Source: Spirochaetales bacterium (GTDB taxonomy: Bacteria; Spirochaetota; Spirochaetia; Sphaerochaetales; Sphaerochaetaceae). From it: DNA of 37,094 nt. The position numbers and the translations under genes are program-made. The DNA lies in contig JAFVFA010000052.1 of the NCBI GenBank assembly GCA_017475725.1, forward strand, positions 1-37,094, read 5' to 3'. The notes under the pieces were generated by a model. It searched no databases. It was not told the origin of the DNA and was given only the letters and a program-made list of their open reading frames with translations. Shown piece by piece: positions 2,688-17,892 of the stretch (positions are counted from its first letter, which is position 1; each line of letters begins with the position of its first letter).

Positions 2688-5600
2688 ATGAAGAAAGCTC
2701 TACGTCTGTCTGCTCTTTTGCTCATCTGCATTTTTGCGTTTGTCTCGTGTACACAGGATCCTGTATCTGTGACAATAACTCCTACAATCCGCGGAAAGGT
2801 GTCGATTCCATCGGGAGCGAACGTTAAAGGCAGTGATTTCTATATCCGCATCATGGAAGGGGAGAATGCGGTATACACAGGCAAGGTCAAAGAGGATGGT
2901 TCATTCGCTGTCGAGGGATTGGACGAGTCCAAGACGTACAGCATTCTTCTTTCAACGGAGGAACTGGGCGAGGTCAATACGAGTGCCAGAGATGTTTCAA
3001 GGGCTGCAAGCACCAGCGGTTATGGTGGATGGCTCAAGAATGTCACAGCTTCAGTGAACGAGCAGGCTGGAGTCGGATCCATAAAGGTGAAACCGCTTGG
3101 AACCATAAAGGGTGTGGTCAAGAGGTCAGGAGAGGAGGAGCACTCTGACATCATGGTCTACATTCCCGGAACATCCTATATGGCTGTCACCGATTCGAAT
3201 GGAAACTACAGCATCTTCAATGTCCCCCAGTCAAGCTCAACCTATAACCTCAGATGCATCTCCGTCACCGGGGACTGGCTTCCAGAGGTGATCACAGGTG
3301 TTCTTCTCTATTCTGACAGCGACACAGAGAATCCTGTGAAGACGGTTCAGGAAAAGTCCATTGTCAAGAATGCAGGTAATCTTCTCGGAACAATCACCAA
3401 GACGGCAGCAACGGATAACAGCAACATAACAGTTCTGATCCAGAACGATGAGTTCTCTGAAACAGGGACAACAGCTGCGGACGGTAGCCTGAAGATAACC
3501 GGAATCTTGCCGGGAACATACAAAGTGACAATCAGCTCCACCGGGTTCGTCACACAGACAATCGATGATGTTGTCATCAGGGCAGCCAAAGACACTTCCA
3601 TAGGAGAGAAGGTCCTGATAGCAAATGGTGGTGATATAATTGGAACTGTCTCAATCAATGATGGGTCTTCTAGCATTGGCTCGCTGATTACTGTCACAAG
3701 TCAGGATAAGAAGTATTCGTATACTACTCAGGCAAGTGCCGATGGTTCTTTTGTTATTCCTAATGCCTACGGCGCGATATATGACATAACAATTTCAAAG
3801 ACAGGATATGCAGAAGTGATTCAGCACAACATTCTGGTTTCTGCTGGTCAGGTTACTGCGTTGGGATTGATAGAGCTTTCTTCCTCATATGGCACAGTGT
3901 CTGGCAGAGTAACGGACACCAAGGGCAACCCGCTTGAGAATGCCATTGTGAAGATCGGCAACTTGAGTGTGTTCACGGGAGTGGACGGCATGTTCACGAA
4001 AACTGGTGTGCCTGTAGGAAACTGTGATGTGTCGGTGAGCATGGAGGGGTACTCCACGCAGAACCTTGCACAGATGATCACGGTTGAATCCTCCAGGACC
4101 ACTGGTATAGGTACTGTCAGGCTCGCATCCGTCTACGGATCGGTCACTGGAACAGTCACGGTCAATGACGGGAAATCGGTTGAGAATATCAGTGTCTCTG
4201 CAACCTCTGCAGATGGTGCCAGTATCCAAGTGAAGACCATCGGTGATGGTTCTTATCACATTCAGGGCTTGGTTCCAGGTTCATATACTGTCTCTGCAAA
4301 TGCTGATGGTTATACTGGATCAAGTAGGACTGTGGCAGTATCCGCAGACAACAATGTGGAAATAGATGTTCTTTCCTTGTATAGCAAGTATGGAAAGCTG
4401 AGCGGTAGAGTCGTCGATTCAAATGGAAACCCTCTGAGCGGAGTCTCCATCATGATCGGAGATTTGGAAGCAGTTGTAACCAAAGCAGACGGAACATTCA
4501 TCAAGGATTTGCTTCCTGTCGGATTATACTCAATTTCAATCACGAAGGAAAGTTTTGTTGACGAACTTCTAGAGAACATCGAGGTCCAGTCTTTCATAGA
4601 AACACATCTAACAGATGATGTTGTTATGACTCCAAAGATGGGCACGATAGCGGGCAGAGTCAGAATTGACGGCGAATCAGATTTTTCAGGAATAAAGGTT
4701 ACTGTTTCATCAAGTGGAGAAGGAAAGGACTATTCTGCCTTTACAGAGGCAGATGGATCTTTCTCTATTTCTGCACTCCCTGGAAACTATAACCTGATTG
4801 AGTTCTCTCATCCATGCTGCAATGTCCAATATTATTTGGACAATGTTGCTTTGTTTGCAAATGGAAGAGTTGAAGTTAAACCACAGGGATTGAATTCAAC
4901 GGAGTATCAGATTGCGTTGAGCCACAACTATGGAATTCTTTACAACGAGTCAAAGTCTTCCTCTTGTACGGAGCAAGGATACAATAAACTCCGATGTTGG
5001 GATTGTGGCAAAGAAATCACAGAGTATTTGGATATTTTGGAACATGAATTCTCTTTGGTTGACCACCTTGATCCAACCTGTACTGAAGAAGGTTGGAGAA
5101 AATACGAATGCTCATCATGTGGACAGGAGTTCACAGAGATTGATCAAGCTCTTGGCCATGATTGGAACAAGCCGGTCATCATTGAAGCTGCCACCTGTCA
5201 TTCAACAGGATTGCAGCAAGTCACCTGTAAGACTTGTGGTGAGACGGAGAACCAGACCATTGCGATGCTTCCGCACTCATGGGTGGACAATGGATACCAC
5301 GATGGGAAGATCGAGTACGTCTGCTCTGTCTGTGACGAGGTTGAATATGCAGATGACTCCACCGCTATTCTGAACATCAGTGACTGGGGTTCAGTGTCAT
5401 TGAAACCATCTGTGGACCCGAGTTCGGTCAAGACTCTGATTATACCGTCAGAGATAAACGGAATGACGGTAACGTCTGTATTCGAGCATACTTTCCAGGA
5501 TTGCGTTAATATCACTAAGATTGTCCTCCCTGAAACTCTCACCTCCATTGAGAGTTGGGCGTTCGCAGGGTGTATCGGAATAACCGAGATAGATTTGCCG

Positions 5601-8600
5601 GCATCTCTCACGAGAATTGGAGATCAGGCATTCCGAGGATGCACATCTCTGAAATCAATTGTTATTCCAGATGGAATTGAAAAGATTGAATACTCAACAT
5701 TCTATAATTGCGAATCACTAGTTTCCGTGACTCTTCCAGATTCTGTGACTTATCTTGATCGGGAGTGCTTTGTCGGATGTGGATTTGACAGATTCCAGAT
5801 TCCGGAGACTGTTGACACATTAAGCTGTTATGTTTTCATGAACTGCAAAAACCTCAAGGAGATTCTCATTCCCAAGAGTGTGAAGTATGTTGATGACAGA
5901 CCGTTCTGGGATTGTACCTCCTTGCAGAAAATCTATGTTCAGTCACAGACCCAGCCAAGTGGATGGATAACATCCTGGCATGATTGTTGTGATGCTCAGA
6001 TAGTTTGGGGCTACACAGGAGAACTGCATTATACCCATACTGAATCAACGGAATGGAAGACAAGCTCCACATATCACTGGCATGAGTGTACGGAATGCGG
6101 AGAGGTCATGAGCATGGCCAAGCACACCTACCAAAGCGAGGTCACTGCTCAGCCAACCTGTACTGAAGCAGGAACAATGACCTATACATGTTCCGAATGC
6201 GGATGGAGCTACACCGAAACCATTCCAGCCCTTGGACATGACTATCATTCGGAGATAACAAAGCAGGCGACATGTACGGAAAAGGGAGAACTCAAGTATT
6301 CCTGCAGCCGTTGTGACAGCACATACACTGAGGAGATCGTCTCGCACCACGAATATGAGGAAGTGGTAACCACTGCTGCCACCTGTACCACGGATGGTCT
6401 GAAGACTCTGACATGCTCAATCTGCAGTGACAGCAAGACCGAAGTGATTCCTGCAACAGGACACTCCTACAAGGAAACCGTTGTTCCTGCAACCTGTACA
6501 GATGACGGAACAAAGATCTACAAATGCGAGCACTGTGAGGACGCCTATGAGGAAGTGATCCCTGCAATTGGTCATAACTATGTAGCATCCATCACCAAGC
6601 AGGCAACCTGTGAAGAGGATGGAATCAAGACATTCACATGCTCAAGATGCAGTGATTCCTACACAGAGACAATCAATGCCTATGGTCACTATTTCACAAC
6701 TTCTACAATAGTTCAGGCAGCAACATGCCATGAGGCAGGAATCAAGTCCTCCAAGTGCTTCAGATGTGGCAAGACCGTTACAGAGGAGATCCCAAAGCTC
6801 GAGCACAATCCAGTCTTTGCAGCCGATGAGTCAAACCACTGGACGCAGTGCAGTCTCTGTGGAGAAATCCTTGTTTCCAAGGCGGCCCACAACTATATCG
6901 AGACTGAAGGTGACTTCGTCTGTGCAGACTGCGGTTATTCTGAATCATCTCTCTACTACCAGGTGGATGACAACGGAATTCTGACTCCAAAGGACAAATC
7001 GGTTCTTCCATCAGTGGTTAGAATCCCATCTAACATCAATGGAAAAGCTGTAACGGCCATAGGTGATGATGCTTTCAGGGATTGCACCAACATAACAACG
7101 CTTTATATCTCGGAAGGCATCAAGAAGGTTGGTGCAAATGCATTCTGGTACTGCACAAACATAACATCGATCTCTCTACCAAGCACATTAAGTGAAATTG
7201 GGGATAGTTCGTTCAGGGGCTTGGAGAAACTTAAGGATCTGGTTGTTCCGGGAAGCCTCCGGTATCTCCCCTCACAATCATTTAGTCTGTGCCATGATCT
7301 TCAGTCAATTATCATCGAAGATGGTGTTGAGCGAATCGGTCCGTATGCATTGGAAGAGGTTTTCAACAACAAACTTGATTATGTCGAGATTCCTAGAAGT
7401 GTAACCACTATTGAAGGCTATGCATTCCGGCAGTGTTACATTGACGAGATTAACTATGCGGGAACAATTGCTGATTGGAACAACATTACGATTGATCAGC
7501 GCTGGATGCATCTAAGCACAATTGAACGAATAGTCTGTGCTGATGGAATTATAGTAATTGGCGATTATGATGTAACTGCTGATGGAGAATTCTATGTTAT
7601 AAAAAAAGATATGATCCCTTCACATTTTGAAATTCCTTCTGTAATTAATGGTATAAAAGTAACAAAACTGGCCGACAGTGCTTTTGATGATTGCCAAACC
7701 ATTGAGTCCGTTGTTATTCCCGAAGGAGTTGTTTCAATAGAAGCATGGGGATTTTATAATTGTCAGAATCTAAAGGAGATATCATTTCCTTCAACTATGA
7801 AAAACATCGGCCATTATGCGCTTATGGGTACTCAGATTGAGACATTGTACCTGCCTAATGGGAATCTTGGAAATGCTATTGCCTGTTGCAATTCTGTCAA
7901 ATCCATAACAATCTCCAACGAATCATCTTCTGCGCCTATTGTAGGAAGTTGCAGAAATCTTGAGGAATTGGTTTTTCTTGGAACTATGAGTGAATGGAAC
8001 CGACTTCCAAAAGAAGGAGGCTGGTGTGAAAAGACATTACTGAAGAAAGTTTCATGTCTTGATGGTGATGTCGAAATACCAAACATTTACATTAACAATA
8101 GCACCCTGTTCTGTAATAATACTTCAGCATTATTATCCGAAGTAGAAATACCTGCTTCATTTGATGGAAGCGCTGTGAAAAAAATATCCGATAACATGTT
8201 CCGTGGTGACACTCACATTGTTTCAGTCGTTATTCCTGAAGGAGTAAAGGAAATCGGAGCCTCGTGTTTTAGGGAGTGTTCAAATCTTGTATCTGTTTCA
8301 CTACCATCAACAATAACAACAATCGGTTCCGAGGCTTTTCAATATTGTGAAAAGCTCGAATCGGTAAAGATTCCTTCTGGGGTAACCAAGATTGAACCGG
8401 ATACATTCTCGCGATGTTACTCGTTATCAGAAGTTGTAATACCAAACACCGTTACGACTATTGGGTATGGCGCTTTTCATAGTTGTCCCATGAAGTCCAT
8501 TGAGATTCCTGATTCGGTAACTTCTATTGGATGGGTTGCTTTTTACGATTCAAAGCTAACTTCATTGGTTATTCCAGACAGCGTCAGATACATTGATAGC

Positions 8601-8816
8601 GAAGCTTTTGCCAATTCAAGTCTGCTGGAATCAGCTGTTATATCAGGTAATCTCTCATCAATCCCCAATAAGCTGTTTGAGAACTGCACGAATCTGAGCT
8701 TAATCATGTTCAACGGGACCGTTGCCAAATGGAATTCTCTTAACAAGGGAAGCGGATGGAATGAAGGTGTTCCAGCAACAAAGGTTGTCTGTCTTGATGG
8801 TGAAGTGAATCTGTAA
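2688..8816 (+). CDS. Giant modular surface lipoprotein (2042 aa): CarboxypepD_reg-like beta-sandwich repeats + Cys-rich repeats + BspA-type leucine-rich repeats
   Basis: One uninterrupted 6.1 kb ORF. The signal peptide carries a lipobox (LLLICIFAFVSC). The repeat modules are described in the sub-features below. Confidence 0.9.
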   Translation: MKKALRLSALLLICIFAFVSCTQDPVSVTITPTIRGKVSIPSGANVKGSDFYIRIMEGENAVYTGKVKEDGSFAVEGLDESKTYSILLSTEELGEVNTSARDVSRAASTSGYGGWLKNVTASVNEQAGVGSIKVKPLGTIKGVVKRSGEEEHSDIMVYIPGTSYMAVTDSNGNYSIFNVPQSSSTYNLRCISVTGDWLPEVITGVLLYSDSDTENPVKTVQEKSIVKNAGNLLGTITKTAATDNSNITVLIQNDEFSETGTTAADGSLKITGILPGTYKVTISSTGFVTQTIDDVVIRAAKDTSIGEKVLIANGGDIIGTVSINDGSSSIGSLITVTSQDKKYSYTTQASADGSFVIPNAYGAIYDITISKTGYAEVIQHNILVSAGQVTALGLIELSSSYGTVSGRVTDTKGNPLENAIVKIGNLSVFTGVDGMFTKTGVPVGNCDVSVSMEGYSTQNLAQMITVESSRTTGIGTVRLASVYGSVTGTVTVNDGKSVENISVSATSADGASIQVKTIGDGSYHIQGLVPGSYTVSANADGYTGSSRTVAVSADNNVEIDVLSLYSKYGKLSGRVVDSNGNPLSGVSIMIGDLEAVVTKADGTFIKDLLPVGLYSISITKESFVDELLENIEVQSFIETHLTDDVVMTPKMGTIAGRVRIDGESDFSGIKVTVSSSGEGKDYSAFTEADGSFSISALPGNYNLIEFSHPCCNVQYYLDNVALFANGRVEVKPQGLNSTEYQIALSHNYGILYNESKSSSCTEQGYNKLRCWDCGKEITEYLDILEHEFSLVDHLDPTCTEEGWRKYECSSCGQEFTEIDQALGHDWNKPVIIEAATCHSTGLQQVTCKTCGETENQTIAMLPHSWVDNGYHDGKIEYVCSVCDEVEYADDSTAILNISDWGSVSLKPSVDPSSVKTLIIPSEINGMTVTSVFEHTFQDCVNITKIVLPETLTSIESWAFAGCIGITEIDLPASLTRIGDQAFRGCTSLKSIVIPDGIEKIEYSTFYNCESLVSVTLPDSVTYLDRECFVGCGFDRFQIPETVDTLSCYVFMNCKNLKEILIPKSVKYVDDRPFWDCTSLQKIYVQSQTQPSGWITSWHDCCDAQIVWGYTGELHYTHTESTEWKTSSTYHWHECTECGEVMSMAKHTYQSEVTAQPTCTEAGTMTYTCSECGWSYTETIPALGHDYHSEITKQATCTEKGELKYSCSRCDSTYTEEIVSHHEYEEVVTTAATCTTDGLKTLTCSICSDSKTEVIPATGHSYKETVVPATCTDDGTKIYKCEHCEDAYEEVIPAIGHNYVASITKQATCEEDGIKTFTCSRCSDSYTETINAYGHYFTTSTIVQAATCHEAGIKSSKCFRCGKTVTEEIPKLEHNPVFAADESNHWTQCSLCGEILVSKAAHNYIETEGDFVCADCGYSESSLYYQVDDNGILTPKDKSVLPSVVRIPSNINGKAVTAIGDDAFRDCTNITTLYISEGIKKVGANAFWYCTNITSISLPSTLSEIGDSSFRGLEKLKDLVVPGSLRYLPSQSFSLCHDLQSIIIEDGVERIGPYALEEVFNNKLDYVEIPRSVTTIEGYAFRQCYIDEINYAGTIADWNNITIDQRWMHLSTIERIVCADGIIVIGDYDVTADGEFYVIKKDMIPSHFEIPSVINGIKVTKLADSAFDDCQTIESVVIPEGVVSIEAWGFYNCQNLKEISFPSTMKNIGHYALMGTQIETLYLPNGNLGNAIACCNSVKSITISNESSSAPIVGSCRNLEELVFLGTMSEWNRLPKEGGWCEKTLLKKVSCLDGDVEIPNIYINNSTLFCNNTSALLSEVEIPASFDGSAVKKISDNMFRGDTHIVSVVIPEGVKEIGASCFRECSNLVSVSLPSTITTIGSEAFQYCEKLESVKIPSGVTKIEPDTFSRCYSLSEVVIPNTVTTIGYGAFHSCPMKSIEIPDSVTSIGWVAFYDSKLTSLVIPDSVRYIDSEAFANSSLLESAVISGNLSSIPNKLFENCTNLSLIMFNGTVAKWNSLNKGSGWNEGVPATKVVCLDGEVNL
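2781..4920 (+). repeat. Array of about ten CarboxypepD_reg/PEGA-like beta-sandwich repeats (protein level) in lipoprotein 1
   Basis: A module of 80-100 aa recurs in the form G(T/S)(V/I)xGxVxxxxGxPLxxxxVxI...TxxDGxFxxxxLxPGxYxLxxSxxGY. One example is YGTVSGRVTDTKGNPLENAIVKIGNLSVFTGVDGMFTKTGVPVGNCDVSVSMEGYS. Confidence 0.7.
4964..5350 (+). repeat. Cys-rich repeat block 1 (3 full copies plus a partial) of a roughly 32-37 aa C-x9-C-x2-C-x12-H module
   Basis: Copies are SCTEQGYNKLRCWDCGKEITEYLDILEHEF, PTCTEEGWRKYECSSCGQEFTEIDQALGHDW and ATCHSTGLQQVTCKTCGETENQTIAMLPHSW, followed by the partial YVCSVCDEVEY. Confidence 0.75.
5427..5945 (+). repeat. BspA-type leucine-rich repeat (LRR_5-like) block A
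   Basis: Units of 23-25 aa recur, e.g. IPSEINGMTVTSVFEHTFQDCVNITKIVLPETLTSIESWAFAGCIGITEIDLPASLTRIGDQAFRGCTSLKSIVIPDGIEKIEYSTFYNCESL. They follow the pattern (I/L)Pxx(V/L)xxIGxxAFxxCxxL. Confidence 0.8.
6025..6940 (+). repeat. Cys-rich repeat block 2 (6 full plus about 3 partial copies) of the C-x9-C-x2-C-x12-H module
   Basis: Full copies are PTCTEAGTMTYTCSECGWSYTETIPALGHDY, ATCTEKGELKYSCSRCDSTYTEEIVSHHEY, ATCTTDGLKTLTCSICSDSKTEVIPATGHSY, ATCTDDGTKIYKCEHCEDAYEEVIPAIGHNY, ATCEEDGIKTFTCSRCSDSYTETINAYGHYF and ATCHEAGIKSSKCFRCGKTVTEEIPKLEHNP. Half-modules flank them (HWHECTECGEVMSMAKHTY, HWTQCSLCGEILVSKAAHNY, FVCADCGY). Confidence 0.8.
7014..8745 (+). repeat. BspA-type LRR blocks B, C and D (about 7014-7490, 7623-8005, 8140-8745), each ending in a '...GT(I/M/V)xxWNxL/I' cap
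   Basis: Three further runs of the (I/L)PxxVxxIGxxAFxxCxxLxx(V/I) unit. Each run is introduced by '(V/F)xIPSxINGxxVTxI' and terminated by a similar cap (YAGTIADWNNI, FLGTMSEWNRL, FNGTVAKWNSL). Confidence 0.8.
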
Positions 8817-8827
8817 GGTCGTAGGAT

Positions 8828-11800
8828 ATGAGAAAACTAGTCTTGTTTGTTTTGTTGATTTCTTTGTTCGCCATGGTCTCCTGCAACGAGGAGCCTGCTA
8901 CTGTGGTCCAGCAGACCCCCACAATCAGGGGTTCCGTCTCAATCCCCGCAGGTGCAGGGGTCACCGGAAGTGACTTTTACGTCCGCATCATGGAGGGTGA
9001 GAGGGCTGTCTACACCGACAAGGTGAACAGTGACGGTTCATTCTCGGTGTCCGGACTCAGTGAGGAGAGGACATACAGCATACTTCTCACAACTGAGGAG
9101 CCGGGAAACATCAACGACAGCTCAAGGGATGTCCCAAGGGCAGCCACCAGCGGCTACGGCGGATGGCTGAGCAATGTGACGGCATCGGTCAACGAGCAGG
9201 CAGGGGTTGGTTCAATCAAGGTGAAGCCACTTGGAACAATCAGGGGCGTTGTGAAGAAGGACGGCGCCGAGGACAACTACGACACAACCGTATACATCCC
9301 TGGAACCTCATATCTTGCCATGACGGATGGAGAGGGGAACTTCAGCATCTTCAATGTTCCACAAGCCACATATACCCTCAGATTCATCTCCAGCGGCTAC
9401 ATGGCAAGGATGGTTGATAATGTGGTGTTGCATTCAGACAGTGACACAGAGAATCCGGTCACCACTGTGCAGGCACAGACACTGATAAAGAACGCTGGAA
9501 ATCTCATTGGAACGATCTCGAAGACAGGCTCAACAGATCACAGCAATGTTACAGTCATGCTCAGTGATGGAAAGAACACCTTCACAGGAAGCACGTCTTC
9601 AGACGGAAGTCTGCTAATCTCCAGCATAATCCCTGGAACATATACTGCCACAATCAGTGCAAGCGGGTTCCTGACACAGACAATCGAAGGCCTCACAATA
9701 GAGGCTGCGAAGAACACGGCACTCAATCCTATAAGCCTCATAGCAAATGGTGGAAGCATAGCTGGAACGGTTGAGATGAACGATGGAGGCGAGAAGGCAG
9801 GTGTACTGATAACCGCGAAGAGCACCGATGACAAGTACTCCTACACCACAAGTACGGATGCCGAGGGCAAATACGTGATCAACAACACCTATCCCGGAGT
9901 ATACATCCTAACCGCCTCAAAAGCTGGTTATCCCTCTGTGACTACAGGAGAAGCAGCCTCAATTGCAGGACAGACAACAACTATTGGAGTCATTTCCCTC
10001 TCATCCAAGTATGGCAGTGTCTCAGGCAGGGTGGCACTTTCAGAGAGTGTGGACAACAGTGGAGTTACAGTTTCCCTTACATGCGGTGCAGGTCCGTCAA
10101 TCGCCTACACGGCTGTGTCAGGAGCAGATGGAACATACACAATCAGTAGCCTTACAACAGCTGGGCAATACACCATCACATTCAGCAAGGACGGCTATGT
10201 GTCTAATACTGGAACCGTGGTGAATGTTGTGCTCGGGCAGAATCAGGTGATAGAGGACGTCACACTGAAGAGCCTTGCCTCCAAGGTGTTCGGAAATGTC
10301 ACCCTTGAAGAGACGGGGGACTACACTGGAATCTCCGTCCAACTGAAGGCAGTGGATGGCTCAGTTCAATACGATGCAACAACGGACCAGCAGGGAAACT
10401 ATGTCATGGCAAGAGTTAACCCCGGCGAATACTCACTGACTGCATCAAAGGCTGGATATGTGTCCAAGACTGTTGAATCGATAATTATTGAGTCGTCAAC
10501 TGAGAAGGAGCTTGATTTAGTGATCCTTAATATAGGAACACGATCTGTTTTCGGAACAGTCAGTCTTGAACTGGGAAACAGTCATGAAGGAACTCTAGTA
10601 ACTGCAACAAATACCCAAGACACTACGAAAATATACTCTGCTATTACTAATACTGCAGGTGAATTCACCCTTGCGGGTATGGTTCCGGGCAGGTATAACG
10701 TTGCATTGTCTCACAGCAACTATGTGACATCCACTGTATCTATCGATGTTATTGACGGTACTCTTGCAACAAACGATAATGTGAAACTTGCAATTGCAAG
10801 AGGTGCAATTCAAGGTTATGCCAAGCTTGAGGGCTACACAGATTACAGCGGAACATCTGTCGTTCTTGTCGGAACGGACTATTCTACCGTCACTGATAAT
10901 GAAGGATTCTATTCACTCAATGTGCCTACGGGAAACTATTCCGGTGGAATCCTGTTCGAACATGAGGATTTCGAGAGTCATATGCATGTCTCTACTGTCA
11001 CTGTGCAGATGAGCGGAGCATATGGAATCCCGACTGTGACATTGGATGCAAAGAATGTCAGAGTGGTTAAAGGTGTATTCACCTTGAAGGACAGATCCGA
11101 CAGTTCAGGCATCTCTGTCTATTTTGAGGATCTTCCACATTATTCTGCAGAGACGGATACAGAGGGAAACTGGGTAATTGAACATGTGCCGCTCGGTCAG
11201 CACAATCTTGTCACATACAGGGAAAACGTCAAGTCGTTCAGTATGACTGTAGAACTTGAACCTGCACCAGCGTATGACAATGGCACATTGGTTCTTATTC
11301 CTGAATCTGCAACAATTCAGGGTTTTGCAAGGTTATCCGGAATGACTTCATATGCAGGCATCGAAGTGACAGCAACACCTGAAGGAGTTGGAGATGTAAT
11401 CACCACAACCACAAAGGCAGATGGGTCATATTATATGTCGAATTTGCTTTCCACATCGGACTACACAATCTCGTTCTTCAAGGAAGGTTGGAAAATGGAA
11501 AGCATCAAGCAGAGGAATTTCACAGAACTTGAAGTCCGGACTCTTGATGATATCGCTATGGTTGATAATACGGCTCCTGTCATTTCCGATGTGGTCATCA
11601 ACAACGGCGGGGCTACGACTTCCGACAGGGAAATAAGAATTTATCTTTCATCCAATGACCTCGGAAGCGGATGCAAAAGAGTCCAGATCAACACAGAAAA
11701 CAGGTTTGATGAAACTGTGATATATAGGGACTATTATGATGAGCAGGATTTCACACTTCCTGAGGGAAACGGTGAAAAGACCATATACATCAAGGTGTAT

Positions 11801-14023
11801 GACCTTGCTGGAAACGGCTCTGAGGTGTTCCGGAAAACAATAACGTTGACCGAACAGAAGACCAAGGTGGGTGGCGTTCTTGTAGGTGCGACTGATATTG
11901 TATGGACCAAAGAAAAGAGTCCGTACTACGTGGAAAGCAGTATTCTGGTCGAGTCTGGTCGTACCTTGACCATAGAGCATGGTGTAGTTGTTGAATTTGC
12001 TGGACCTTACTATATCGATGTCGAGGGAACCATGTATGTTAATGGTACGGAAGACGACATGGTATGTATGTATGGTGTGGGTGAAGGCGAGAATACGTGG
12101 AAGGGTGTAAACTTCCTCAGTAAAAATCTTGTTTATACAGGAACGGAGTATGAACCGGTCTATGTAAGCGGAAACAGGATGTCCTATGTGAACATTCAGA
12201 ATAATGCAGAAGGGATAACGGGAACAGCGTGGATTGAAAAATGTACTATTACGACAAGTTCCAATATAAATGAAAAGGCATCATGGCAATGGCGAGGTCT
12301 TGCATTTGGAAATGCTGGTTTTGGAGAAGGCCCTCAAAGCAATGGAACTCAGATGCAGTCAATTTTCTATGTTTCAGGGGTATTTAAGGATAATACTATC
12401 ATTGGTGATTTCTCCTGCTATGGCTTGGCCCCATTTATTTTTGCAAATAACCAAGTGGAAGGAAATGTGTTTATCCAGAATACAAATAATGATGCTCGCA
12501 ATATGGAGTACCACTTCTACAATAATCGCTTTGTTGGGATAGGCTGCAAGTTTGGAATAGATACTTATTACAAGAATGATTACTTCTTTGCAAATAATGC
12601 TTTTAATGGCTTTGAAAGCCTTTCTGTGTTTTCTAGTTGGAGCACGGAGAGAGTAGATTGGGGCGATTCTCGTTTTTCTTATGATAACTGCTCTTTTGAG
12701 GCCATTAATCAAATTAGCATTGATGTTAGGGGCTCTGGATGTGCAGGACGAATAAAAGGGGTGTTTTGTGGGTGCTTGTTTGATAGCATTGAGACAATTG
12801 AAATCGGTTTTTCTGTTGATGTGAATTATTCTAATATTATTGACGTTTCGAAGATTTCTGTCACATCTCAGAGACAATATCTTGGATCAAACTCATTCTC
12901 CAACAATTACTGGGGGCCTGATAAGGTTTTTTCAATGAATAATAATGGAGATGATTTCAATTATGCCTTCTTCTCTGATTTCTATGACGATATTGTTGTG
13001 TCCAAGCTTGATTATTCGGGATGGGTTCAGAATCCATTTGAAACAGCAGGGTACCGAGGAGAAGACTACTGCTCTTATGAGTTGGTTCCAGAAAAACCTA
13101 TTGAAGCTACTATTAATGTCGATTCAGATTACGTGATGACGAATGTGGGTGTAAATCGCATCTTCGTTTTACCTGTCTACGGATCAGATGCTATAAGGTA
13201 TAGAGCTTTTCAGAACCTTGATGAGTTGTTGGTACTCGCCTCAGATGAAGGATGGACAGAGACTGTCGATCACAAGATTAGTATTTATCCAGATAATCTG
13301 AAAGATTGGTTTATTCAGATAGAAGATGGTAATGGCAGGAAATCACGTGTTTATAGGATAGCACCAATATTTTTGGTCGGAGGTCCTGCGGGAGGATTTG
13401 TATTTTATGACTGCGATGCTGACAACAATTCTGGTGATTCTGATGGTTTAAGGTCTTCTGAGATTGGTTGGAGATATCTTGAGGCTGCTCCAGCAGATCT
13501 TAAGGTTGTCAATGGTGTCCCGACAGTCGACTCTTCTGTCAACGGATATTCAAGTGCTTCCAGCGAATATGAATTCGGTTATTACAGGACAGCCGACAGC
13601 GGAGATAACTTGTATGTAAATGGAACACCCACTTACAGAGGATCCAACTGCACAGGAACTGCCATAGGAACAGGAGAGTCCAATACACAGCTTCTCGCCG
13701 AAGCAATGGGAGATGAGACTTATTCCTCAGAATCTGGCTCAAATAAGACTTCAAACTATGCCGCAAGGTTGTGTGACATAGTTGAATACACTGTGGATGG
13801 AGTGACTTATGACGACTGGTTCCTGCCAAGCAAGGACGAGCTGAACGTGATGTACACCAATCTGCACATGGCTGGTCTAGGCGATTTTGCCAACTACGGC
13901 TACTGGTCATCCAGTGAGGACAGCGATTTCACATACAATGCGTGGTTAGAGAATTTCTATGGAAGCCTGTACTGCAACAGCCGCCAACTCAGATACAAAG
14001 TACGTCCTATACGAACTTTCTAA
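8828..14023 (+). CDS. Giant modular surface lipoprotein 2 (1731 aa): paralogous N-terminal stalk, CarboxypepD_reg-like repeats, Ig-like domain, beta-helix-like region, C-terminal DUF1566 (Lcl C-terminal / C-type-lectin-like) domain
   Basis: An uninterrupted 5.2 kb ORF starting 11 nt after lipoprotein 1. It has a lipobox (LLISLFAMVSC). The first ~380 aa align colinearly with lipoprotein 1, at roughly 60% identity by eye. Confidence 0.9.
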   Translation: MRKLVLFVLLISLFAMVSCNEEPATVVQQTPTIRGSVSIPAGAGVTGSDFYVRIMEGERAVYTDKVNSDGSFSVSGLSEERTYSILLTTEEPGNINDSSRDVPRAATSGYGGWLSNVTASVNEQAGVGSIKVKPLGTIRGVVKKDGAEDNYDTTVYIPGTSYLAMTDGEGNFSIFNVPQATYTLRFISSGYMARMVDNVVLHSDSDTENPVTTVQAQTLIKNAGNLIGTISKTGSTDHSNVTVMLSDGKNTFTGSTSSDGSLLISSIIPGTYTATISASGFLTQTIEGLTIEAAKNTALNPISLIANGGSIAGTVEMNDGGEKAGVLITAKSTDDKYSYTTSTDAEGKYVINNTYPGVYILTASKAGYPSVTTGEAASIAGQTTTIGVISLSSKYGSVSGRVALSESVDNSGVTVSLTCGAGPSIAYTAVSGADGTYTISSLTTAGQYTITFSKDGYVSNTGTVVNVVLGQNQVIEDVTLKSLASKVFGNVTLEETGDYTGISVQLKAVDGSVQYDATTDQQGNYVMARVNPGEYSLTASKAGYVSKTVESIIIESSTEKELDLVILNIGTRSVFGTVSLELGNSHEGTLVTATNTQDTTKIYSAITNTAGEFTLAGMVPGRYNVALSHSNYVTSTVSIDVIDGTLATNDNVKLAIARGAIQGYAKLEGYTDYSGTSVVLVGTDYSTVTDNEGFYSLNVPTGNYSGGILFEHEDFESHMHVSTVTVQMSGAYGIPTVTLDAKNVRVVKGVFTLKDRSDSSGISVYFEDLPHYSAETDTEGNWVIEHVPLGQHNLVTYRENVKSFSMTVELEPAPAYDNGTLVLIPESATIQGFARLSGMTSYAGIEVTATPEGVGDVITTTTKADGSYYMSNLLSTSDYTISFFKEGWKMESIKQRNFTELEVRTLDDIAMVDNTAPVISDVVINNGGATTSDREIRIYLSSNDLGSGCKRVQINTENRFDETVIYRDYYDEQDFTLPEGNGEKTIYIKVYDLAGNGSEVFRKTITLTEQKTKVGGVLVGATDIVWTKEKSPYYVESSILVESGRTLTIEHGVVVEFAGPYYIDVEGTMYVNGTEDDMVCMYGVGEGENTWKGVNFLSKNLVYTGTEYEPVYVSGNRMSYVNIQNNAEGITGTAWIEKCTITTSSNINEKASWQWRGLAFGNAGFGEGPQSNGTQMQSIFYVSGVFKDNTIIGDFSCYGLAPFIFANNQVEGNVFIQNTNNDARNMEYHFYNNRFVGIGCKFGIDTYYKNDYFFANNAFNGFESLSVFSSWSTERVDWGDSRFSYDNCSFEAINQISIDVRGSGCAGRIKGVFCGCLFDSIETIEIGFSVDVNYSNIIDVSKISVTSQRQYLGSNSFSNNYWGPDKVFSMNNNGDDFNYAFFSDFYDDIVVSKLDYSGWVQNPFETAGYRGEDYCSYELVPEKPIEATINVDSDYVMTNVGVNRIFVLPVYGSDAIRYRAFQNLDELLVLASDEGWTETVDHKISIYPDNLKDWFIQIEDGNGRKSRVYRIAPIFLVGGPAGGFVFYDCDADNNSGDSDGLRSSEIGWRYLEAAPADLKVVNGVPTVDSSVNGYSSASSEYEFGYYRTADSGDNLYVNGTPTYRGSNCTGTAIGTGESNTQLLAEAMGDETYSSESGSNKTSNYAARLCDIVEYTVDGVTYDDWFLPSKDELNVMYTNLHMAGLGDFANYGYWSSSEDSDFTYNAWLENFYGSLYCNSRQLRYKVRPIRTF
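8915..11565 (+). repeat. CarboxypepD_reg/PEGA-like beta-sandwich repeat array in lipoprotein 2
   Basis: Modules recur such as YGSVSGRVALSESVDNSGVTVSL...GADGTYTISSLTTAGQYTITFSKDGY, VFGNVTLEETGDYTGISVQLKAVDGS...TDQQGNYVMARVNPGEYSLTASKAGY and IQGYAKLEGYTDYSGTSVVLVGTDYSTVTDNEGFYSLNVPTGNY. Confidence 0.7.
11860..13000 (+). other. Right-handed beta-helix-like region (protein domain) of lipoprotein 2
   Basis: It opens with WTKEKSPYYVESSILVESGRTLTIEHGVVVEFAGPYYIDVEGTMYVNGTEDDMV, the common 'SPY.V...i.V..G.TLTIEPGV.V.F' beta-helix entry motif. N/G/F-rich pseudo-repeats follow. The preceding NTAPVISDVVINNGGATTSDREIRIYLSS...YIKVYDLAGNGS segment looks Ig-like. Boundaries are approximate. Confidence 0.5.
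13375..14020 (+). other. DUF1566 / Lcl C-terminal-like domain of lipoprotein 2
   Basis: The entry is GGPAGGFVFYDCD...GWRYLEAAPADL. The terminal DDWFLPSKDELNVMYTNL...YGYWSSSEDSDFTYNAWLENFYGSLYCNSRQLRYKVRPIRTF matches the DUF1566 pattern W(R/F)LP(T/S)xxEL...YWSS(T/S)E...AW...F..G......VR.(V/I)R.F. Confidence 0.75.
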
Positions 14024-14036: not shown

Positions 14037-15137
14037 ATGACAAAAGGAGACCTGTTGAGCGTGTTACATGAATTCAAAGAGTGGCTCGAAATAACAGAAG
14101 ATTCCAAGAATTCCTATAGCTCATATGTTAGTTCTTTGTTTGTTCGTGTCCTTGAGCCTAGGATGGCCGATATAAAGGAAATCTTTAGTGACAATCAAGT
14201 TGAGCCAGATACTCCTCTTTTAGCATGGATTGTTGATTCTGCTCGAAGCGAGGAAGAACTATCTTCGTTTTCTTGTTTGGTAGAGAATATTATTTCAACA
14301 GAGATTGCAAACACCAGAAGTGGTACTAGTTCTTTATCCATACCGGCTAAGACATTATCCAATTACAGAAGTGGCTTTAGAAGATTCATTAATTATCTTG
14401 GAGTAGAGAATAGCGTAGTAAAGAAATGTGAGGATATTGGTTTTCCCAAATCGGAAAAGAAGATTGAGATTCCATTCAATTCTGATCAGTTTTTCAGCCA
14501 CAGACAGATGTTCAACACTTTCAAAAGCAGGCTGAAGACCCAGGATCGTTTTTACTCACACATTATTTTCCCCGTGAGGCTCCTAAGTAAGTTGTTCAAT
14601 GGAAAGGGAAAAAAGGAAGAGTACAACTTGGTACTGAAAAATACCATTGATTCAACAAAGATCCTCATATGTGGAGAAGAAAAGGATGTTTGCTTCAGTT
14701 CTGTTTCATCACTTAACATCAATATAGGAAAAGAAAACTCATGCCAAGTCAATGTTGTAGACAAAGGATGGAAGACTGTATGTACAGAATGTTATGAGAA
14801 TGGTGGCGGACCCAAAATCCGTTTGCTACAACCGTTATCCTTCATGGACTTGTCATTAGATCATGATACAGCAATGCATAACCTTTTGGAGGAGCATTGT
14901 CTGGATTATCCTGCACTTAAAAGGCTCTCTGATCGCATTGCCAATCACTTCAATATATCTGGGGATTACAATCAGCTAAGAGGTTACAGAGATAGGATTT
15001 GTTCAGAATTCTATGAAAGTGTGGGTTTCTCTGAAAACGAGATTGACAATCTTTACAAAGAGTTCGTTGAGCTCAGCGAAAAAATAAGTTTAACAATCAT
15101 GGAGCGTTCTGAGAACTCGAGAAAGAATGCTTCATAA
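14037..15137 (+). CDS. Hypothetical cytoplasmic protein (366 aa), AT-rich orphan inside the surface-protein operon
   Basis: The ORF is open from 13959, but that start overlaps the stop of the upstream gene. The first non-overlapping ATG is 14037 (MTKGDLLSVLHEFKEWLEI...). It has no signal peptide or TM segment, and I recognise no family. Confidence 0.6.
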   Translation: MTKGDLLSVLHEFKEWLEITEDSKNSYSSYVSSLFVRVLEPRMADIKEIFSDNQVEPDTPLLAWIVDSARSEEELSSFSCLVENIISTEIANTRSGTSSLSIPAKTLSNYRSGFRRFINYLGVENSVVKKCEDIGFPKSEKKIEIPFNSDQFFSHRQMFNTFKSRLKTQDRFYSHIIFPVRLLSKLFNGKGKKEEYNLVLKNTIDSTKILICGEEKDVCFSSVSSLNINIGKENSCQVNVVDKGWKTVCTECYENGGGPKIRLLQPLSFMDLSLDHDTAMHNLLEEHCLDYPALKRLSDRIANHFNISGDYNQLRGYRDRICSEFYESVGFSENEIDNLYKEFVELSEKISLTIMERSENSRKNAS

Positions 15138-15167
15138 TGGATAAAACAATTGTTAAAAGGAGTTAAC

Positions 15168-15755
15168 ATGAAAAAAATCGCAATCCTTTTGCTGTGCATC
15201 ATCGCACTGGGACTGATCGTATCATGCCAGGCCACCAACCATGGTGTGGCATTGTCGCAGAACAAGGGAGTGGTCGGGAAGAACGGCATCCCCAGACCGG
15301 ATTGGGTCATCTATGACCAGTCAACCAAGAAGATGCACTTCGCCTCAGGCTTCGGCACAAGCAAGACATTCGAGGTCGCCAAGCAGAAGGCCGTGCTGAA
15401 CGCCGATGCAGAGCTTGCACTGTGGATTGCAAACTCCGTTACCGCCGTCAGGGACAGGTACATAGAGGAGGCCATAGTCAACGAGAGCGAGACATACATC
15501 GACAAGTTCGTCTCCACTGCAACAGAGATGGGCAACGCCGTCATGTCCGGAGTCACAGAGATCGACTACTGGGAGGACGGGGACGGTGGTGTCTGGGTTC
15601 TCCGCGCCATTGAGGTCGCAAACGTCAAGGCACAGATTGCCGCTGCCATAAGCGCAACATGTGCAGAGCCGACCCTGTTCAGCGGCACCACTGATGTCGC
15701 TGATGTCATGGCCAAGCTCAACAAGGCCCTTGACGAGTACTTCCCGGCAGAATGA
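15168..15755 (+). CDS. LPP20/FlgP-like lipoprotein
   Basis: The ATG at 15168 follows AAAAGGAG. A lipobox is present (IIALGLIVSCQ). The core IPRPDWVIY...HFASGFGTSKTFEVAKQKAVLNADAELALWIANSV fits the LPP20 pattern (P.W....y.vG.G......A...A...A..ELa..i). Confidence 0.7.
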   Translation: MKKIAILLLCIIALGLIVSCQATNHGVALSQNKGVVGKNGIPRPDWVIYDQSTKKMHFASGFGTSKTFEVAKQKAVLNADAELALWIANSVTAVRDRYIEEAIVNESETYIDKFVSTATEMGNAVMSGVTEIDYWEDGDGGVWVLRAIEVANVKAQIAAAISATCAEPTLFSGTTDVADVMAKLNKALDEYFPAE

Positions 15756-16762
15756 TGAGAAGGAACCTTTGCATCTTTGCTGCGGTCCTGCTTCTTGCAG
15801 GACTGCTGGTGTCCTGTGCATCGTCAAAGTGGGTGTCGGATCCCTATGCCTCCTATCCGCAGGCTGACTATGTCTGCGCAGTGGGGAAGGGCAGCACTCA
15901 AGATGAAGCCGACCTTGCGGCCAGGCGTGAACTTGCAGCCCTTTTCGGCATGAGTGTGCAGTCCACAATCTCCAGGACCCTTGTCGAGACATCTGTCGAG
16001 AGGGATGGCCGGAGCTCGGAGAGCTTCAGCGAGTTCTTCACAAGCAATGCTACCACAACGGTGAATGTGGACAACCTCTACGGGGTGGAGATCGCCAAAC
16101 GGACGACAGAGAAGGACGGCAGGTCCGTCTCTCTTGCCGTGATGGAGAAGAAGGCCACCGCTGACTACTATCTTGCCAGATTGAAGTCTGACAAAGAGGA
16201 GATCGATGGCCTGAAAGCATCAATTGCACCGAATTTCGGCAAGTTGAAAGCCATTTCGGACTCTGTATCCATCATCCGGAAGGTTAATGACTACAACACC
16301 AGCGTGGTCATGTGCAACTACCTGACCGGTGGGGAGATCCCTTTCATGAGCCTGGCGGAGTTCAGTGAGCTCTACAGACAGGCAATGGATGCCGTTGTGG
16401 TCGATGTTGTTGTGGAAGGCGATCCCTCAGGTGCCGTCAAGAGCGCTGTGGACAAGATCGTCACGGGTTGCGGCCTTTCAGTTGCCGCCGGAAACTCGGA
16501 GCCCACTGCCAAGGTCGCAGTCACAGTGGTTTGGCGTGAGAGTGCAGGTACAGGCGTAGCAAGCTCATTCCTGTTCGCGGACTACAACGCCGACATCTCG
16601 CTGGTGGATCTTGCAGATGGGGAGAGTATCTTCGTCAGATCCTACAAGGGTAAGGAAGGTCATCAGACTTTCGAGAGCGCCAAGGCCAGGGCTATCACAG
16701 ATCTGGTTGGCCAGATCGAGGATGAGTTCGGACCCGCGATGAGGGAAGTCTTCACATACTAG
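15752..16762 (+). CDS. LPP20-domain lipoprotein with C-terminal extension
   Basis: Its start overlaps the upstream stop (ATGA), implying translational coupling. A lipobox is present (LLLAGLLVSCASS). ADYVCAVGKGSTQDEADLAARRELAALFGMSVQSTI is a second LPP20-like core. About 200 further residues are of unknown fold. Confidence 0.65.
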   Translation: MMRRNLCIFAAVLLLAGLLVSCASSKWVSDPYASYPQADYVCAVGKGSTQDEADLAARRELAALFGMSVQSTISRTLVETSVERDGRSSESFSEFFTSNATTTVNVDNLYGVEIAKRTTEKDGRSVSLAVMEKKATADYYLARLKSDKEEIDGLKASIAPNFGKLKAISDSVSIIRKVNDYNTSVVMCNYLTGGEIPFMSLAEFSELYRQAMDAVVVDVVVEGDPSGAVKSAVDKIVTGCGLSVAAGNSEPTAKVAVTVVWRESAGTGVASSFLFADYNADISLVDLADGESIFVRSYKGKEGHQTFESAKARAITDLVGQIEDEFGPAMREVFTY

Positions 16763-16770
16763 GAGAGTTT

Positions 16771-17892
16771 ATGAAAAGCATGAAGAGAACAGTCCTTGCT
16801 CTTGTTGTTCTGTTTGCACTGTGCCTTCCCGTCTTCGCGGCGACCAATGAATATGAGGCTGCTGTGGCGGAGATTGTGGAGACCTTCGCCAATGTTCTGG
16901 GCAAGGGCACCACAGTTGCGTTCGTTTCCATGGAAAGCGATTCGGAGGCTTTCTCCTCCAGATTCATGTCGGATGTGGAAAGGGGGCTTGTGAACCGCGA
17001 TGCCATTGTCCTTGACAGAAGCAACATCGATGCCATTGTGGCGGAGCTGGAGTTCCAGACAAGCGGCCTGGTCGATGATGACCAGGCGGTCTCCATCGGT
17101 CACATGCTCGGGGCGCAGATGATAATATCGGCAAAGGCATCAAACCAGGTCTCCGCCTATCATGTCGACATCCAGCTGATAGACATAGAGACCACTCTGG
17201 TCAGAAGGCATCTTGTCTACGACCTGAAGCAGGACCAGAACCTGAGGAACATCATCAGCGGAAGCTCATCGAATGTCGGAAGCCAGAAGATCGGCATCGG
17301 ACTGCGTGGCGGCATGAACTTCGGGTTCAACAAGGCCCATGAGGATATGGTCGGAACCGGGACAAGACCCGCTGAGGAGTCCCCGAAGACGTTCACTCCG
17401 ACTTTAAGCGCCTTCTACAGGGTCATGGACACCCTGAAGGTGCAGCTCGAGCTCTCCTACTTGGAGAACGGCATTGATGTCTACGGCTTCTACGATGACT
17501 ACAGCGGCTACACGCTTGACATTGATGTCCGGTACAAGACGCTGGACATTCCGCTTCTTCTGGCATGGAACTTCATCCAGAAGCCTGTGAGCGTGGATGT
17601 CTTTGCCGGGGCCTATGCCTCCATCCCCGTCAGCACAGCCAACATCTCGTATGACATCGAAGGCCACGGCAACCTCAAGGGTTCGGTCGATGTCACCGGT
17701 GTTGTGTTCGGCGTTGTCGGAGGATTCGATGCCGGCTTCAGAGTCGGTCCCGGCAATGTTGTGGTGGATGCAAGGTTCTTCTATGACCTGACACCCGCAA
17801 TGGCCCAGGGTGAGCTTCTGGGCGAAGGTTCGCAGGGTCTTATGTACCGCAGAGGCGTGATCGTGTCTGCCGGTTACATGTTCGAGATCTGA
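16771..17892 (+). CDS. Outer-membrane protein: N-terminal CsgG/LpoB/FlgO-type periplasmic domain fused to a C-terminal OMP beta-barrel
   Basis: An SPase-I signal is present (LCLPVFA-AT). The N-domain TTVAFVSMESDSEAFSSRFMSDVERGLVNRDAIVLDRSNIDAIVAELEFQTSGLVDDDQAVSIGHMLGAQMIISAKAS...YHVDIQLIDIETTLV matches the CsgG/LpoB/TolB-N-like pattern. The C-terminal half shows alternating-hydrophobic strands rich in G/Y/F and ends ...VSAGYMFEI, an aromatic-x-hydrophobic OMP terminus. Confidence 0.7.
   Translation: MKSMKRTVLALVVLFALCLPVFAATNEYEAAVAEIVETFANVLGKGTTVAFVSMESDSEAFSSRFMSDVERGLVNRDAIVLDRSNIDAIVAELEFQTSGLVDDDQAVSIGHMLGAQMIISAKASNQVSAYHVDIQLIDIETTLVRRHLVYDLKQDQNLRNIISGSSSNVGSQKIGIGLRGGMNFGFNKAHEDMVGTGTRPAEESPKTFTPTLSAFYRVMDTLKVQLELSYLENGIDVYGFYDDYSGYTLDIDVRYKTLDIPLLLAWNFIQKPVSVDVFAGAYASIPVSTANISYDIEGHGNLKGSVDVTGVVFGVVGGFDAGFRVGPGNVVVDARFFYDLTPAMAQGELLGEGSQGLMYRRGVIVSAGYMFEI

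Follow-up and report, generated by a model that had tools for sequence, protein, structure and literature searches.

We analysed a 37,094-nucleotide (nt) stretch of spirochaete DNA (contig JAFVFA010000052.1 of assembly GCA_017475725.1, a Spirochaetales bacterium of the Sphaerochaetaceae), here called the window, in which six plus-strand genes, g1 to g6, encode two giant lipoproteins (g1 and g2), an orphan protein (g3), two small lipoproteins (g4 and g5), and a predicted outer-membrane barrel protein (g6). With a probability of about 0.5, we read this locus as a conserved outer-membrane trio, g4-g5-g6, that docks or organises exchangeable giant adhesin lipoproteins via their base. This reading draws on the conserved adjacency of trio and giants, on the co-variation of g6 with the N-terminal module of its lipoprotein neighbours (hereafter the cargo), and on mosaicism among the giants. 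The genes are laid out as follows, with intergenic gaps from g1 to g6 of 11, 13, 30, −4, and 8 nt, in agreement with an initial annotation made from the sequence alone.

2688-8816, plus strand: g1, 2042 amino acids (aa)
8828-14023, plus strand: g2, 1731 aa
14037-15137, plus strand: g3, 366 aa; a longer open reading frame (ORF) begins at 13959
15168-15755, plus strand: g4, 195 aa; the ORF opens at TTG 15150
15752-16762, plus strand: g5, 336 aa; overlaps g4 by 4 nt
16771-17892, plus strand: g6, 373 aa

Giant lipoprotein genes accompany the trio in most lineages

The genomic contexts of g6 were collected by exact-protein look-up and by a scan of species-representative genomes, and all were analysed with phmmer against six-frame ORFs. 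Lineages were defined as clusters at <95% g6 identity, and lineage counts include the window; other loci are referred to by L numbers. The genes g4, g5, and g6 were contiguous in 24 of 24 loci (16 clusters). Within ~550 nt of the trio, 14 of the 15 informative lineages also encode a lipoprotein that bears the N-terminal module of g1 and g2. The position of this giant varied. In the window, L001, L145, and L006 it precedes the trio on the same strand; most other lineages have it downstream, again on the same strand; and in L013/L094 the trio has giants on either side, encoded on the opposite strand. The shortest giant neighbour has 1535 aa and the longest at least 4719 aa. In a reverse search, metagenome contigs were scanned with an alignment of the N-terminal module, which returned seven loci with a full-length module; the trio was present in four of the five that could be judged (L090, L091, L092, and L094), and two more were too short. 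Since the linkage has been kept through rearrangement, and between lineages as far apart as 36% g6 identity, it is strong evidence of a functional connection. The coupling of accessory genes to giant lipoproteins, which the initial annotation had proposed from this single locus, thus holds in the forward search with its three arrangements, in the reverse search, and in the divergence of the module, which tracks that of g6.

Three contigs that carry both the trio and a giant, L010, L012, and L013, are labelled as metagenome-assembled genomes (MAGs) of Bacteroidaceae, Paludibacter, and Peptococcales, respectively. These labels most likely result from mis-binning, and the taxonomy of such loci needs caution.

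The N-terminal module of the cargo co-varies with g6

Co-variation was evaluated in 11 non-redundant loci that contain all four parts, with the first 330 residues of the cargo taken as its module. Identity of the module correlated best with that of g6 (Spearman 0.82), and this correlation persisted when g4 and g5 were controlled (partial correlation 0.79; partial Mantel p 2e-4). Conversely, no residual correlation was left between the module and g4 (−0.19) or g5 (−0.01). A single divergent locus bears on the same relationship. Compared with the window, L007 is 73% identical in g4 and 62% identical in g5 but only 32% identical in g6, and its trio adjoins an unrelated 564-aa lipoprotein, a paralogue of which adjoins another LpoB-like lipoprotein. 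Judged by these comparisons, L007 is a natural swap, in which g6 appears to have been replaced and the cargo type to have changed as well.

The giants share a base and differ in their heads

Lipobox calls were read from the sequences and from family alignments, in which the lipobox Ser-Cys is invariant or near-invariant for the giants, g4, and g5. In the giants the lipobox Cys of S18-C19 is conserved (the g1 lipobox is FVSC), and acidic residues follow the lipidated Cys in all of them. The two giants of the window are 44% identical over their first ~710 aa, and the N-terminal module has 47 invariant columns across 12 giants of other loci. The parts of g1 and g2 discussed here are located as follows.

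2688-3842, plus strand: N-terminal module of g1 (aa 1 to ~385), 62% identical to the same part of g2
8828-9982, plus strand: N-terminal module of g2 (aa 1-385), of the 'local' type, matching the trio
4965-5276 and 6159-6806, plus strand: Cys3His repeats of g1 (aa 760-863 and 1158-1373)

Beyond the module, g1 consists of an immunoglobulin (Ig)-like stalk of CarboxypepD_reg domains (six in Pfam), four blocks of BspA-type leucine-rich repeats (LRRs), and nine Cys3His repeats. Its LRR_5 matches (488 bits in seven stretches) pass the Pfam domain cut-off, and its score against the HupY/LrrG equivalog of NCBIfam, 174 bits versus 1250 required, places it outside that equivalog. The nine tandem Cys3His repeats, each of ~37 aa and of the pattern C-x9-C-x2-C-x(11-13)-H, lie between the LRR blocks and may serve as spacers that bind zinc. 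In all, 72 Cys residues occur in g1 and 16 in g2.

In g2, the module is followed by a CarboxypepD_reg stalk (eight domains in Pfam), a beta-rich body, and a C-terminal lectin-like domain of the Lcl_C/DUF1566 type. The Pfam match to Lcl_C (PF07603) over aa 1659-1729 reaches 22.8 bits, below the cut-off of 34.9; precomputed PF07603 matches exist in the g2 orthologues of L002 and L143, and the g2 C terminus aligns with these. The Lcl C-terminal domain of Legionella binds sulphated glycosaminoglycans (PMC11162425). Furthermore, g2 matches the trio neighbours of L002, L010, and L013 (1535-1607 aa) over their full length, including the Lcl_C end. By sequence, g2 is the orthologue of the trio's conserved partner, and g1 is a g2 paralogue with a different head. 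The initial description of two giant lipoproteins with a common N-terminal part and unlike heads is borne out, with LRR_5 and Cys3His repeats in the one and a weak Lcl_C match in the other.

g6 combines an LpoB-like domain with a predicted small barrel

The g6 product has a cleavable signal peptide and no conserved Cys in the family alignment. Its AlphaFold2 (AF2) model, with a predicted local distance difference test score (pLDDT) of 81.5, comprises an alpha/beta domain (~aa 25-165) and a ~10-stranded beta-barrel (aa 174-372). Foldseek matched the N-terminal domain to LpoB (4q6l; template modelling [TM] score to target, 0.67), TolB-N, and GNA1162 and the barrel to OmpA, OmpW, Ail, OmpX, and Pla, with OmpA, OmpW, Ail, and Pla at E 2e-7 to 1e-5. 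At the sequence level, g6 passes the Pfam cut-off for LpoB (30.9 versus 22.3 bits) and scores 20.1 bits against the NCBIfam LpoB equivalog TIGR02722, which requires 110.55; its score against Pfam CsgG (PF03783) is 13.3 bits (E 0.05), below the cut-off of 20.8. An outer-membrane protein with a CsgG/LpoB-like periplasmic domain had been predicted for this gene: the LpoB likeness and the barrel stand, while the CsgG likeness is marginal. OMP_b-brl_2 (PF13568) is precomputed on many g6 homologues, whereas g6 of the window itself matches OMP_b-brl only at E 0.16 and the TDE1717 family (NF049866) at 22 bits versus a cut-off of 135. Model and structural matches support a small-barrel fold for g6, without placing it in a particular subfamily. 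Neither DUF560 nor TPR (tetratricopeptide repeat) matched g3 to g6 in Pfam, and with its too small barrel g6 falls outside Slam/DUF560.

Because of its size and its likeness to OmpA, OmpW, and Pla, the barrel is better seen as an anchor or dock, and it offers no obvious passage to a folded 200-kDa protein. The dedicated outer-membrane barrel of the initial annotation is accordingly corrected to a small one of the OmpA/OmpW/Ail/Pla type, which speaks for an anchor over a conduit for a protein of 2000 aa.

The most conserved stretch of the LpoB-like family lies at g6 aa 91-112 (17041-17106), with the motif ELEFQTSGLVDDDQAVSIGHMLGA, and is the sole segment of the model with pLDDT <50; other phyla, too, have matches to the motif, at 35-50% identity. 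High conservation combined with low model confidence suggests a segment that becomes ordered only with a partner, and the motif may be a binding or oligomerisation element. We found 114 g6 homologues, essentially all of spirochaete type where the source gives a name. In one lineage, a tandem pair of additional g6 paralogues (384 and 357 aa) is encoded divergently upstream of the trio (L005:6033-8262, minus strand; L019:2234-4490).

g4 and g5 resemble LPP20 lipoproteins

The two small lipoproteins had been described as LPP20-type. Both have a lipobox, and g5 exceeds the Pfam LPP20 (PF02169) cut-off of 25.9 bits with 27.4 bits over aa 27-131; g4 stays below it (20.9 bits, E 5e-4), so that g4 is a probable, not a formal, member. 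The g4 lipobox is IVSC, with S19-C20 invariant in 14 sequences, and that of g5 is LVSC, with S21-C22 at ≥90% in 43 sequences. The most conserved trio component is g4 (62% mean column identity), which has an invariant N-terminal segment, C-x3-NH-x-VALSQNK-x3-GKNG-x2-RP-x-W.

In its AF2 model (pLDDT 83), g5 consists of an LPP20/SHS2 domain, a helical hairpin, and a C-terminal domain of LptE/PelC/TolB-N-like fold. Strand 40-47, helix 50-66, and two further strands, 112-119 and 125-132, make up the SHS2 fold, and the helix is followed by a hairpin insert of 45 residues, modelled at low confidence. The top Foldseek match was Helicobacter pylori HP1454 (4kzs; E 3.2e-8, 264 columns, TM score to target 0.51), whose three-domain architecture is superposable; FlgT, LptE, PelC, GNA1162, and CsgG followed. 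No PDB chain was matched significantly by the sequence profiles of g4, g5, or g6, and the relationship of g5 to HP1454 is therefore structural only. The g5-type family is large, with 3048 representatives at E ≤1e-3 in a library of 1.84 billion proteins, and none of ten sampled distant members had an NCBIfam name.

The upstream half of the locus is foreign in composition

GC content at third codon positions (GC3) breaks sharply and exactly at the g3/g4 junction, a feature absent from the initial annotation.

GC3 0.45: g1 and g2
GC3 0.39: g3
GC3 0.53: the divergent XRE gene upstream of g1
GC3 0.67-0.72: g4 to g6
GC3 0.72-0.82: flanking metabolic and housekeeping genes

Hence g1 to g3 and the XRE gene are foreign in composition, and g4 to g6 are host-like. 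The foreign half is not uniform in descent. Residues 1-385 of g2 are 62-65% identical to g1 and to the giants of L002 and L010 and only ~30% identical to the giant of L143, a locus without a trio; residues 386-1731, on the other hand, are 56% identical to the L143 giant. By these identities, g2 is evidently a mosaic. In L143 and L144, a g2-like giant is followed after a 40-nt gap by a g3 homologue (45% identity; L143:10001-11104 and L144:4950-6053, directly 3′ of the g2-type giant), no trio is found within 10 kb, and the cassette adjoins an rve transposase and an AAA_14/DUF4143 gene. Moreover, giants keep a GC3 of ~0.44-0.46 in two hosts of differing background. The mosaic g2, the L143/L144 cassette, and the GC3 of the giants together argue that heads and g3 are exchanged horizontally while the base is matched to the local trio.

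The g3 gene had been counted as part of the system, a place that it does not keep: it is absent from all other trio loci analysed and follows a g2-type gene in a trio-less, transposase-adjoining locus. Its product has no signal peptide, only five homologues were found, and Pfam, NCBIfam, PHROGs, and PADLOC gave no match. Going by this distribution, g3 is a passenger of the g2-type cassette, outside the conserved system. We also considered g3 as a recombinase or phase-variation factor, on account of two integrase core-binding-like motifs seen by eye, and rejected this since there was no family match in the four libraries; no inverted repeats occur around the promoter region (2050-2800). Likewise, a recent insertion of g1 to g3 was rejected as proof against a functional link. 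The layout with the giant upstream is common to L001 and L145, whose g6 identities to the window are 72% and 68-69%, respectively, and adjacency is kept across lineages.

A docking model and its alternatives

We propose that g4, g5, and g6 derive from an ancient and widespread scaffold, in which LPP20-type lipoproteins and an LpoB/TolB-N-like protein would line the periplasmic face of the outer membrane, and that fusion of the LpoB/TolB-N-like protein to a barrel, giving g6, would be the spirochaete specialisation. The trio would assemble at that face into a physical complex, with g6 embedded by its barrel and g4 and g5 held by their lipid anchors. Such an assembly, possibly oligomeric, would have its analogue in the LPP20/TolB-N-like proteins FlgP, FlgO, and FlgT, the membrane-anchoring rings below the Vibrio outer membrane. 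The cargo consists of a membrane-proximal N-terminal module (~330-385 aa), an Ig-like stalk, and a variable adhesin head that is presumably surface exposed, made of LRR and Cys3His repeats in g1 or of a beta-rich body and a DUF1566 lectin domain in g2. The module would dock on g6 as the cargo-specific adaptor, with g4 and g5 as the generic scaffold, and the distal parts of the cargo are swapped horizontally. Most likely, the trio would anchor, position, or stabilise the adhesin base; it may also help insertion. Passage across the outer membrane is better ascribed to general machinery, such as an LptD-type flippase, because in Borrelia surface lipoproteins depend on the LptD homologue BB0838 to be flipped (bioRxiv 10.1101/2022.12.21.521298) and because a proteobacterial lipoprotein can pass through LptDE. 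The finding on BB0838 also makes partly outdated the earlier remark that surface export in spirochaetes is unresolved.

Several observations weigh against the docking model. The giant of L095 (2244 aa) has no trio within −10/+2.3 kb, and the module-bearing giant of L143 has none within ±10 kb. The trio, in turn, occurs without a giant in L007, as do trios or pairs of other phyla in L046, L077, and L049, and the distant modules of Campylobacterota and Bacteroidota sit between housekeeping genes with no giant lipoprotein neighbour. In the window, the giants lie upstream of g4, not beside g6, and are foreign in composition. In addition, the co-variation sample is small (n = 11) and its sequences are phylogenetically related. 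Since g6 and its cargo are usually neighbours, a shared recombination history could give the same signal, which could then reflect co-inheritance with g5/g6 recombination breakpoints, not contact. Finally, ring formation by the trio is proposed by analogy only, and the organism itself is represented by metagenome-type sequence alone.

The trio could alternatively be a dedicated translocon that itself carries the giants through the outer membrane. Its channel would be g6, singly or as an oligomer, and g4 and g5 would serve as chaperones or plugs in the periplasm, in the manner of Slam or of LptE within LptD. We consider this unlikely. The strict linkage of trio and giants and the g6-cargo co-variation would fit a translocon, as would the LptE/PelC/CsgG-type fold of the g5 C-terminal domain and the top g6 motif, disordered in the monomer model as for a segment ordered only in the assembly. 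The acidic residues past the lipidated Cys of the giants also recall the lipoprotein export signals of Bacteroidota. However, the g6 barrel has 8-10 strands and resembles OmpA, OmpW, Ail, and Pla, compared to 14-26 strands in translocators; CsgG is below its cut-off, and no Slam/DUF560, TPR, or Omp85 domain was found in the trio. Related trios also exist without a cargo-like neighbour, and the Borrelia LptD homologue already accounts for the flipping of surface lipoproteins. Similarly doubtful is a self-contained, cargo-matched display machine, in which g4 and g5 would form a ring and g6 would recognise the module, thread or flip the cargo, and then hold it. If true, this would be a fourth surface-lipoprotein route beside Slam, LptD-type flipping, and threading assisted by the beta-barrel assembly machinery (BAM), and its relatives would occur in Bacteroidota and in Campylobacterota, with the H. 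pylori Lpp20 cluster among the latter.

It is also quite improbable, in our view, that the trio is a general envelope module, that is, a housekeeping outer-membrane/peptidoglycan scaffold like Pal, LpoB, or Lpp20, and that the giants merely insert beside it, for example, in a permissive or co-regulated 'surface island'. A hotspot of this kind would gather varied cargo; instead, one and the same N-terminal module recurs, in three arrangements, across 14 of 15 lineages, it co-varies with g6 and not with g4 or g5, and the cargo type changes where g6 is replaced, in L007. Composition does agree with the island, in that g4 to g6 are host-like and g1 to g3 and a downstream defence gene are foreign, and so do the mobile-type genes (AAA_14/DUF4143, PDC-S27, GmrSD, and transposase) that flank the loci of relatives and the large g5-type family, found in several phyla between housekeeping genes. 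We give very little weight to a periplasmic or surface-layer (S-layer)-like array, in which the trio would fasten the giants, as lattice parts, to the outer membrane, possibly in a flagella-related, H-ring-like role. The list of folds matches the H-ring and basal-disk proteins FlgT, FlgP, and FlgO, and the stalk repeats have weak NCBIfam matches to an anammox S-layer glycoprotein, but these matches are due to generic CarboxypepD_reg repeats (33-48 versus 1400 bits). A flagellar role was rejected, as no flagellar genes occur in the window or in any related locus; some carriers are moreover labelled Sphaerochaeta or Sphaerochaetaceae, a group described as non-flagellated. BspA-LRR and DUF1566 heads, furthermore, are typical of extracellular adhesins, and stalks of 1500-4700 aa would not fit the periplasm.

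Related modules in other lineages

Profile searches of the fetched loci showed a g5-like gene adjoining an LpoB/CsgG-like gene in 23 further loci of Spirochaetota, Bacteroidota, and Campylobacterota. In an Arcobacteraceae locus (L046:9163-11815), an LPP20 protein (186 aa), a CsgG/LpoB-like protein with TPR (331 aa), and an LPP20-domain protein (323 aa) are encoded in a row between DctM and ZIP transporter genes; the middle protein has the TPR, not a barrel. In a MAG labelled Helicobacter (L077:8633-10799), a CsgG/LpoB-like gene overlaps a gene for a 333-aa LPP20-domain protein, the pair lying between gpsA and miaA. The initial annotation had held that accessory genes occurring elsewhere without large lipoproteins, in an unrelated established role, would tell against its proposal. 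Cargo-less relatives do exist; an established unrelated role was not found for them.

Paralogous modules in Treponema (L024, L027, L034, L038, and L040; e.g., L027:7103-13079) begin with a divergent XRE gene, past which come genes for a ~255-aa lipoprotein, a g5-like lipoprotein, a ~311-339-aa LpoB/CsgG-like protein, and a lipoprotein of 660-727 aa that has Flg_new repeats and, as its head, an FGE-sulfatase (C-type-lectin-like) domain. As far as domain content tells, these modules repeat the theme, with a repeat-stalk lipoprotein bearing a putative lectin-like head at the end. In L049:9773-10726 (Marinifilum, Bacteroidota), an LpoB-like domain is fused to Lcl_C/DUF1566, and in L037:9153-9581 (Treponema MAG) a small Lcl_C ORF abuts an LpoB-like ORF. 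Since Lcl_C/DUF1566 also ends g2, these cases hint at a recurrent partnership of LpoB-like proteins with DUF1566.

Comparison with known envelope systems

The closest structural likeness is to the lpp20 cluster of H. pylori (HP1454, HP1456/Lpp20, and HP1457): the g5 model best matches HP1454, and g4 and g5 are LPP20-type. Lpp20, HP1454, and HP1457 are together outer-membrane and vesicle associated in H. pylori (PMC7999756). In contrast to that cluster, the trio has no detectable sequence similarity to solved chains, no link to giant lipoproteins is known for H. pylori, and the barrel fusion of g6 is seen only in the spirochaete family. The flagellar H-ring of Vibrio (FlgT, FlgP, and FlgO) and the FlgP basal disk of Campylobacter share with the trio a repertoire of SHS2/LPP20 domains (FlgP and FlgT-N) and TolB-N-like domains (FlgT-M). 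The LPP20 fold is common to FlgP and FlgT, where ring formation correlates with an insert after the SHS2 helix (PMC12222027), and the g5 hairpin insert sits where ring-forming members have theirs. FlgP/FlgO/FlgT rings anchor to the outer membrane's inner leaflet (bioRxiv 10.64898/2025.12.02.691832). Nevertheless, the likeness is one of fold only: the FlgT_N/M/C, FlgO, and FlgP profiles of Pfam matched nothing in g4 to g6 even at E up to 10, spirochaete flagella stay inside the outer membrane, and the partner here is a giant lipoprotein.

Curli (CsgG/CsgE/CsgF) and holdfast (HfaB) systems likewise combine an alpha/beta domain that has the CsgG/LpoB/TolB-N superfold and lies in the periplasm with a fibre on the surface and with small accessory proteins, and one g6 homologue (P0057) is annotated 'CsgG/HfaB family' by its source. 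Unlike CsgG, a lipoprotein whose barrel is oligomeric, g6 is unlipidated and forms a barrel as a monomer, and the cargo here is lipidated. With CsgG below cut-off and no curlin or CsgE/F family in the six products (Pfam and NCBIfam), curli-like secretion was rejected. Slam, the type IX secretion system, and the type I secretion system were rejected as well, for want of matching domains in the six genes or their flanks. Slam of Neisseria and LptD-type flipping (BB0838 of Borrelia; LptDE-LptM) resemble the trio in the task of placing lipoproteins outside a diderm envelope, and the g5 C-terminal domain is LptE-like; the trio, however, is without a DUF560/Slam or LptD/Omp85 domain, the g6 barrel is far smaller, and LptD-type machinery is general, whereas the trio is matched to one cargo family. 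As for LpoB, the activator of penicillin-binding protein (PBP) 1b in Enterobacteria, the N-terminal domain of g6 superposes on the LpoB C-terminal domain, but g6 lacks a lipobox and a long disordered linker and carries a barrel; there is no PBP gene in the window. The relationship of g6 to LpoB is one of fold family, not of functional orthology.

We found no description of the combination of trio and giant lipoprotein in the open-access literature. The components belong to known fold families; what would be new is the role of an LPP20/TolB-N-like scaffold with giant adhesins. Giant adhesin-like lipoproteins are likely attachment determinants of rumen and gut spirochaetes, and the trio offers a testable handle on how proteins of 1500-4700 aa are retained by an outer membrane as fragile as that of spirochaetes. 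It also provides a first functional context for the g5/HP1454-type family and for the functionally obscure H. pylori Lpp20 cluster, and it suggests that the LPP20/TolB-N-like blocks of H-rings and basal disks are one case of a wider class of outer-membrane scaffolds. A conserved base with exchanged heads would explain how adhesins diversify without losing anchoring compatibility, and its use for surface display is conceivable.

Regulatory elements and neighbouring genes

The gene row is flanked by the following elements.

2192-2515, minus strand: XRE/HTH_3 gene, divergent from g1 (Pfam HTH_3, E 2e-13)
2603-2632, plus strand: candidate sigma-70-type promoter TTTACA-18-TAGAAT, 55 nt upstream of g1 (10/12 matches)
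17899-17945, plus strand: intrinsic terminator, closing the gene row after g6

The strong 3′ terminator reported earlier is confirmed, with perfect 11-bp arms (17899-17909/17930-17940) plus an inner extension, a following TTTTT, and a folding free energy of −29.3 kcal/mol (z −2.1). At the 5′ end, where a promoter and a divergent XRE gene had been described, the XRE assignment stands; the promoter match occurs at chance frequency. Promoter-like sites are as frequent in the region as in shuffles (26 found versus 25.8 expected), and the site at 2603-2632 is therefore a candidate only. A weak promoter-like site ends at 15138, just 5′ of g4. The XRE gene is possibly the regulator of the locus. XRE homologues recur elsewhere, adjoining the giant gene in L095 and paralogous LpoB-like modules in L024, L027, L029, L040, L041, and L086.

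The first gene past the terminator (18093-19562, plus strand) matches PDC-S27, a candidate defence gene of PADLOC, over its full length (E 1e-197) and has an ATPase_2/AAA fold and a GC content of 0.43 versus 0.55 in the host. Upstream of it (17943-18120) are two exact 20-nt direct repeats, TTTCCTCTTTCCGTAAAGTG, and, at a spacing of 52 nt, three copies of TAGTTAGCGCC..AAA, whose inverted partners are TTTTGGCGCTAA; these have an operator-like look. Homologues of this PDC-S27-type ATPase are also encoded near the trio in L005 and L019. Further downstream (25852-27183, plus strand), a patch of low GC (0.46) between metabolic genes holds an AAA_14 + DUF4143 gene, whose family also adjoins the trio in L001 and the g2-like/g3-like cassette with its transposase in L143.

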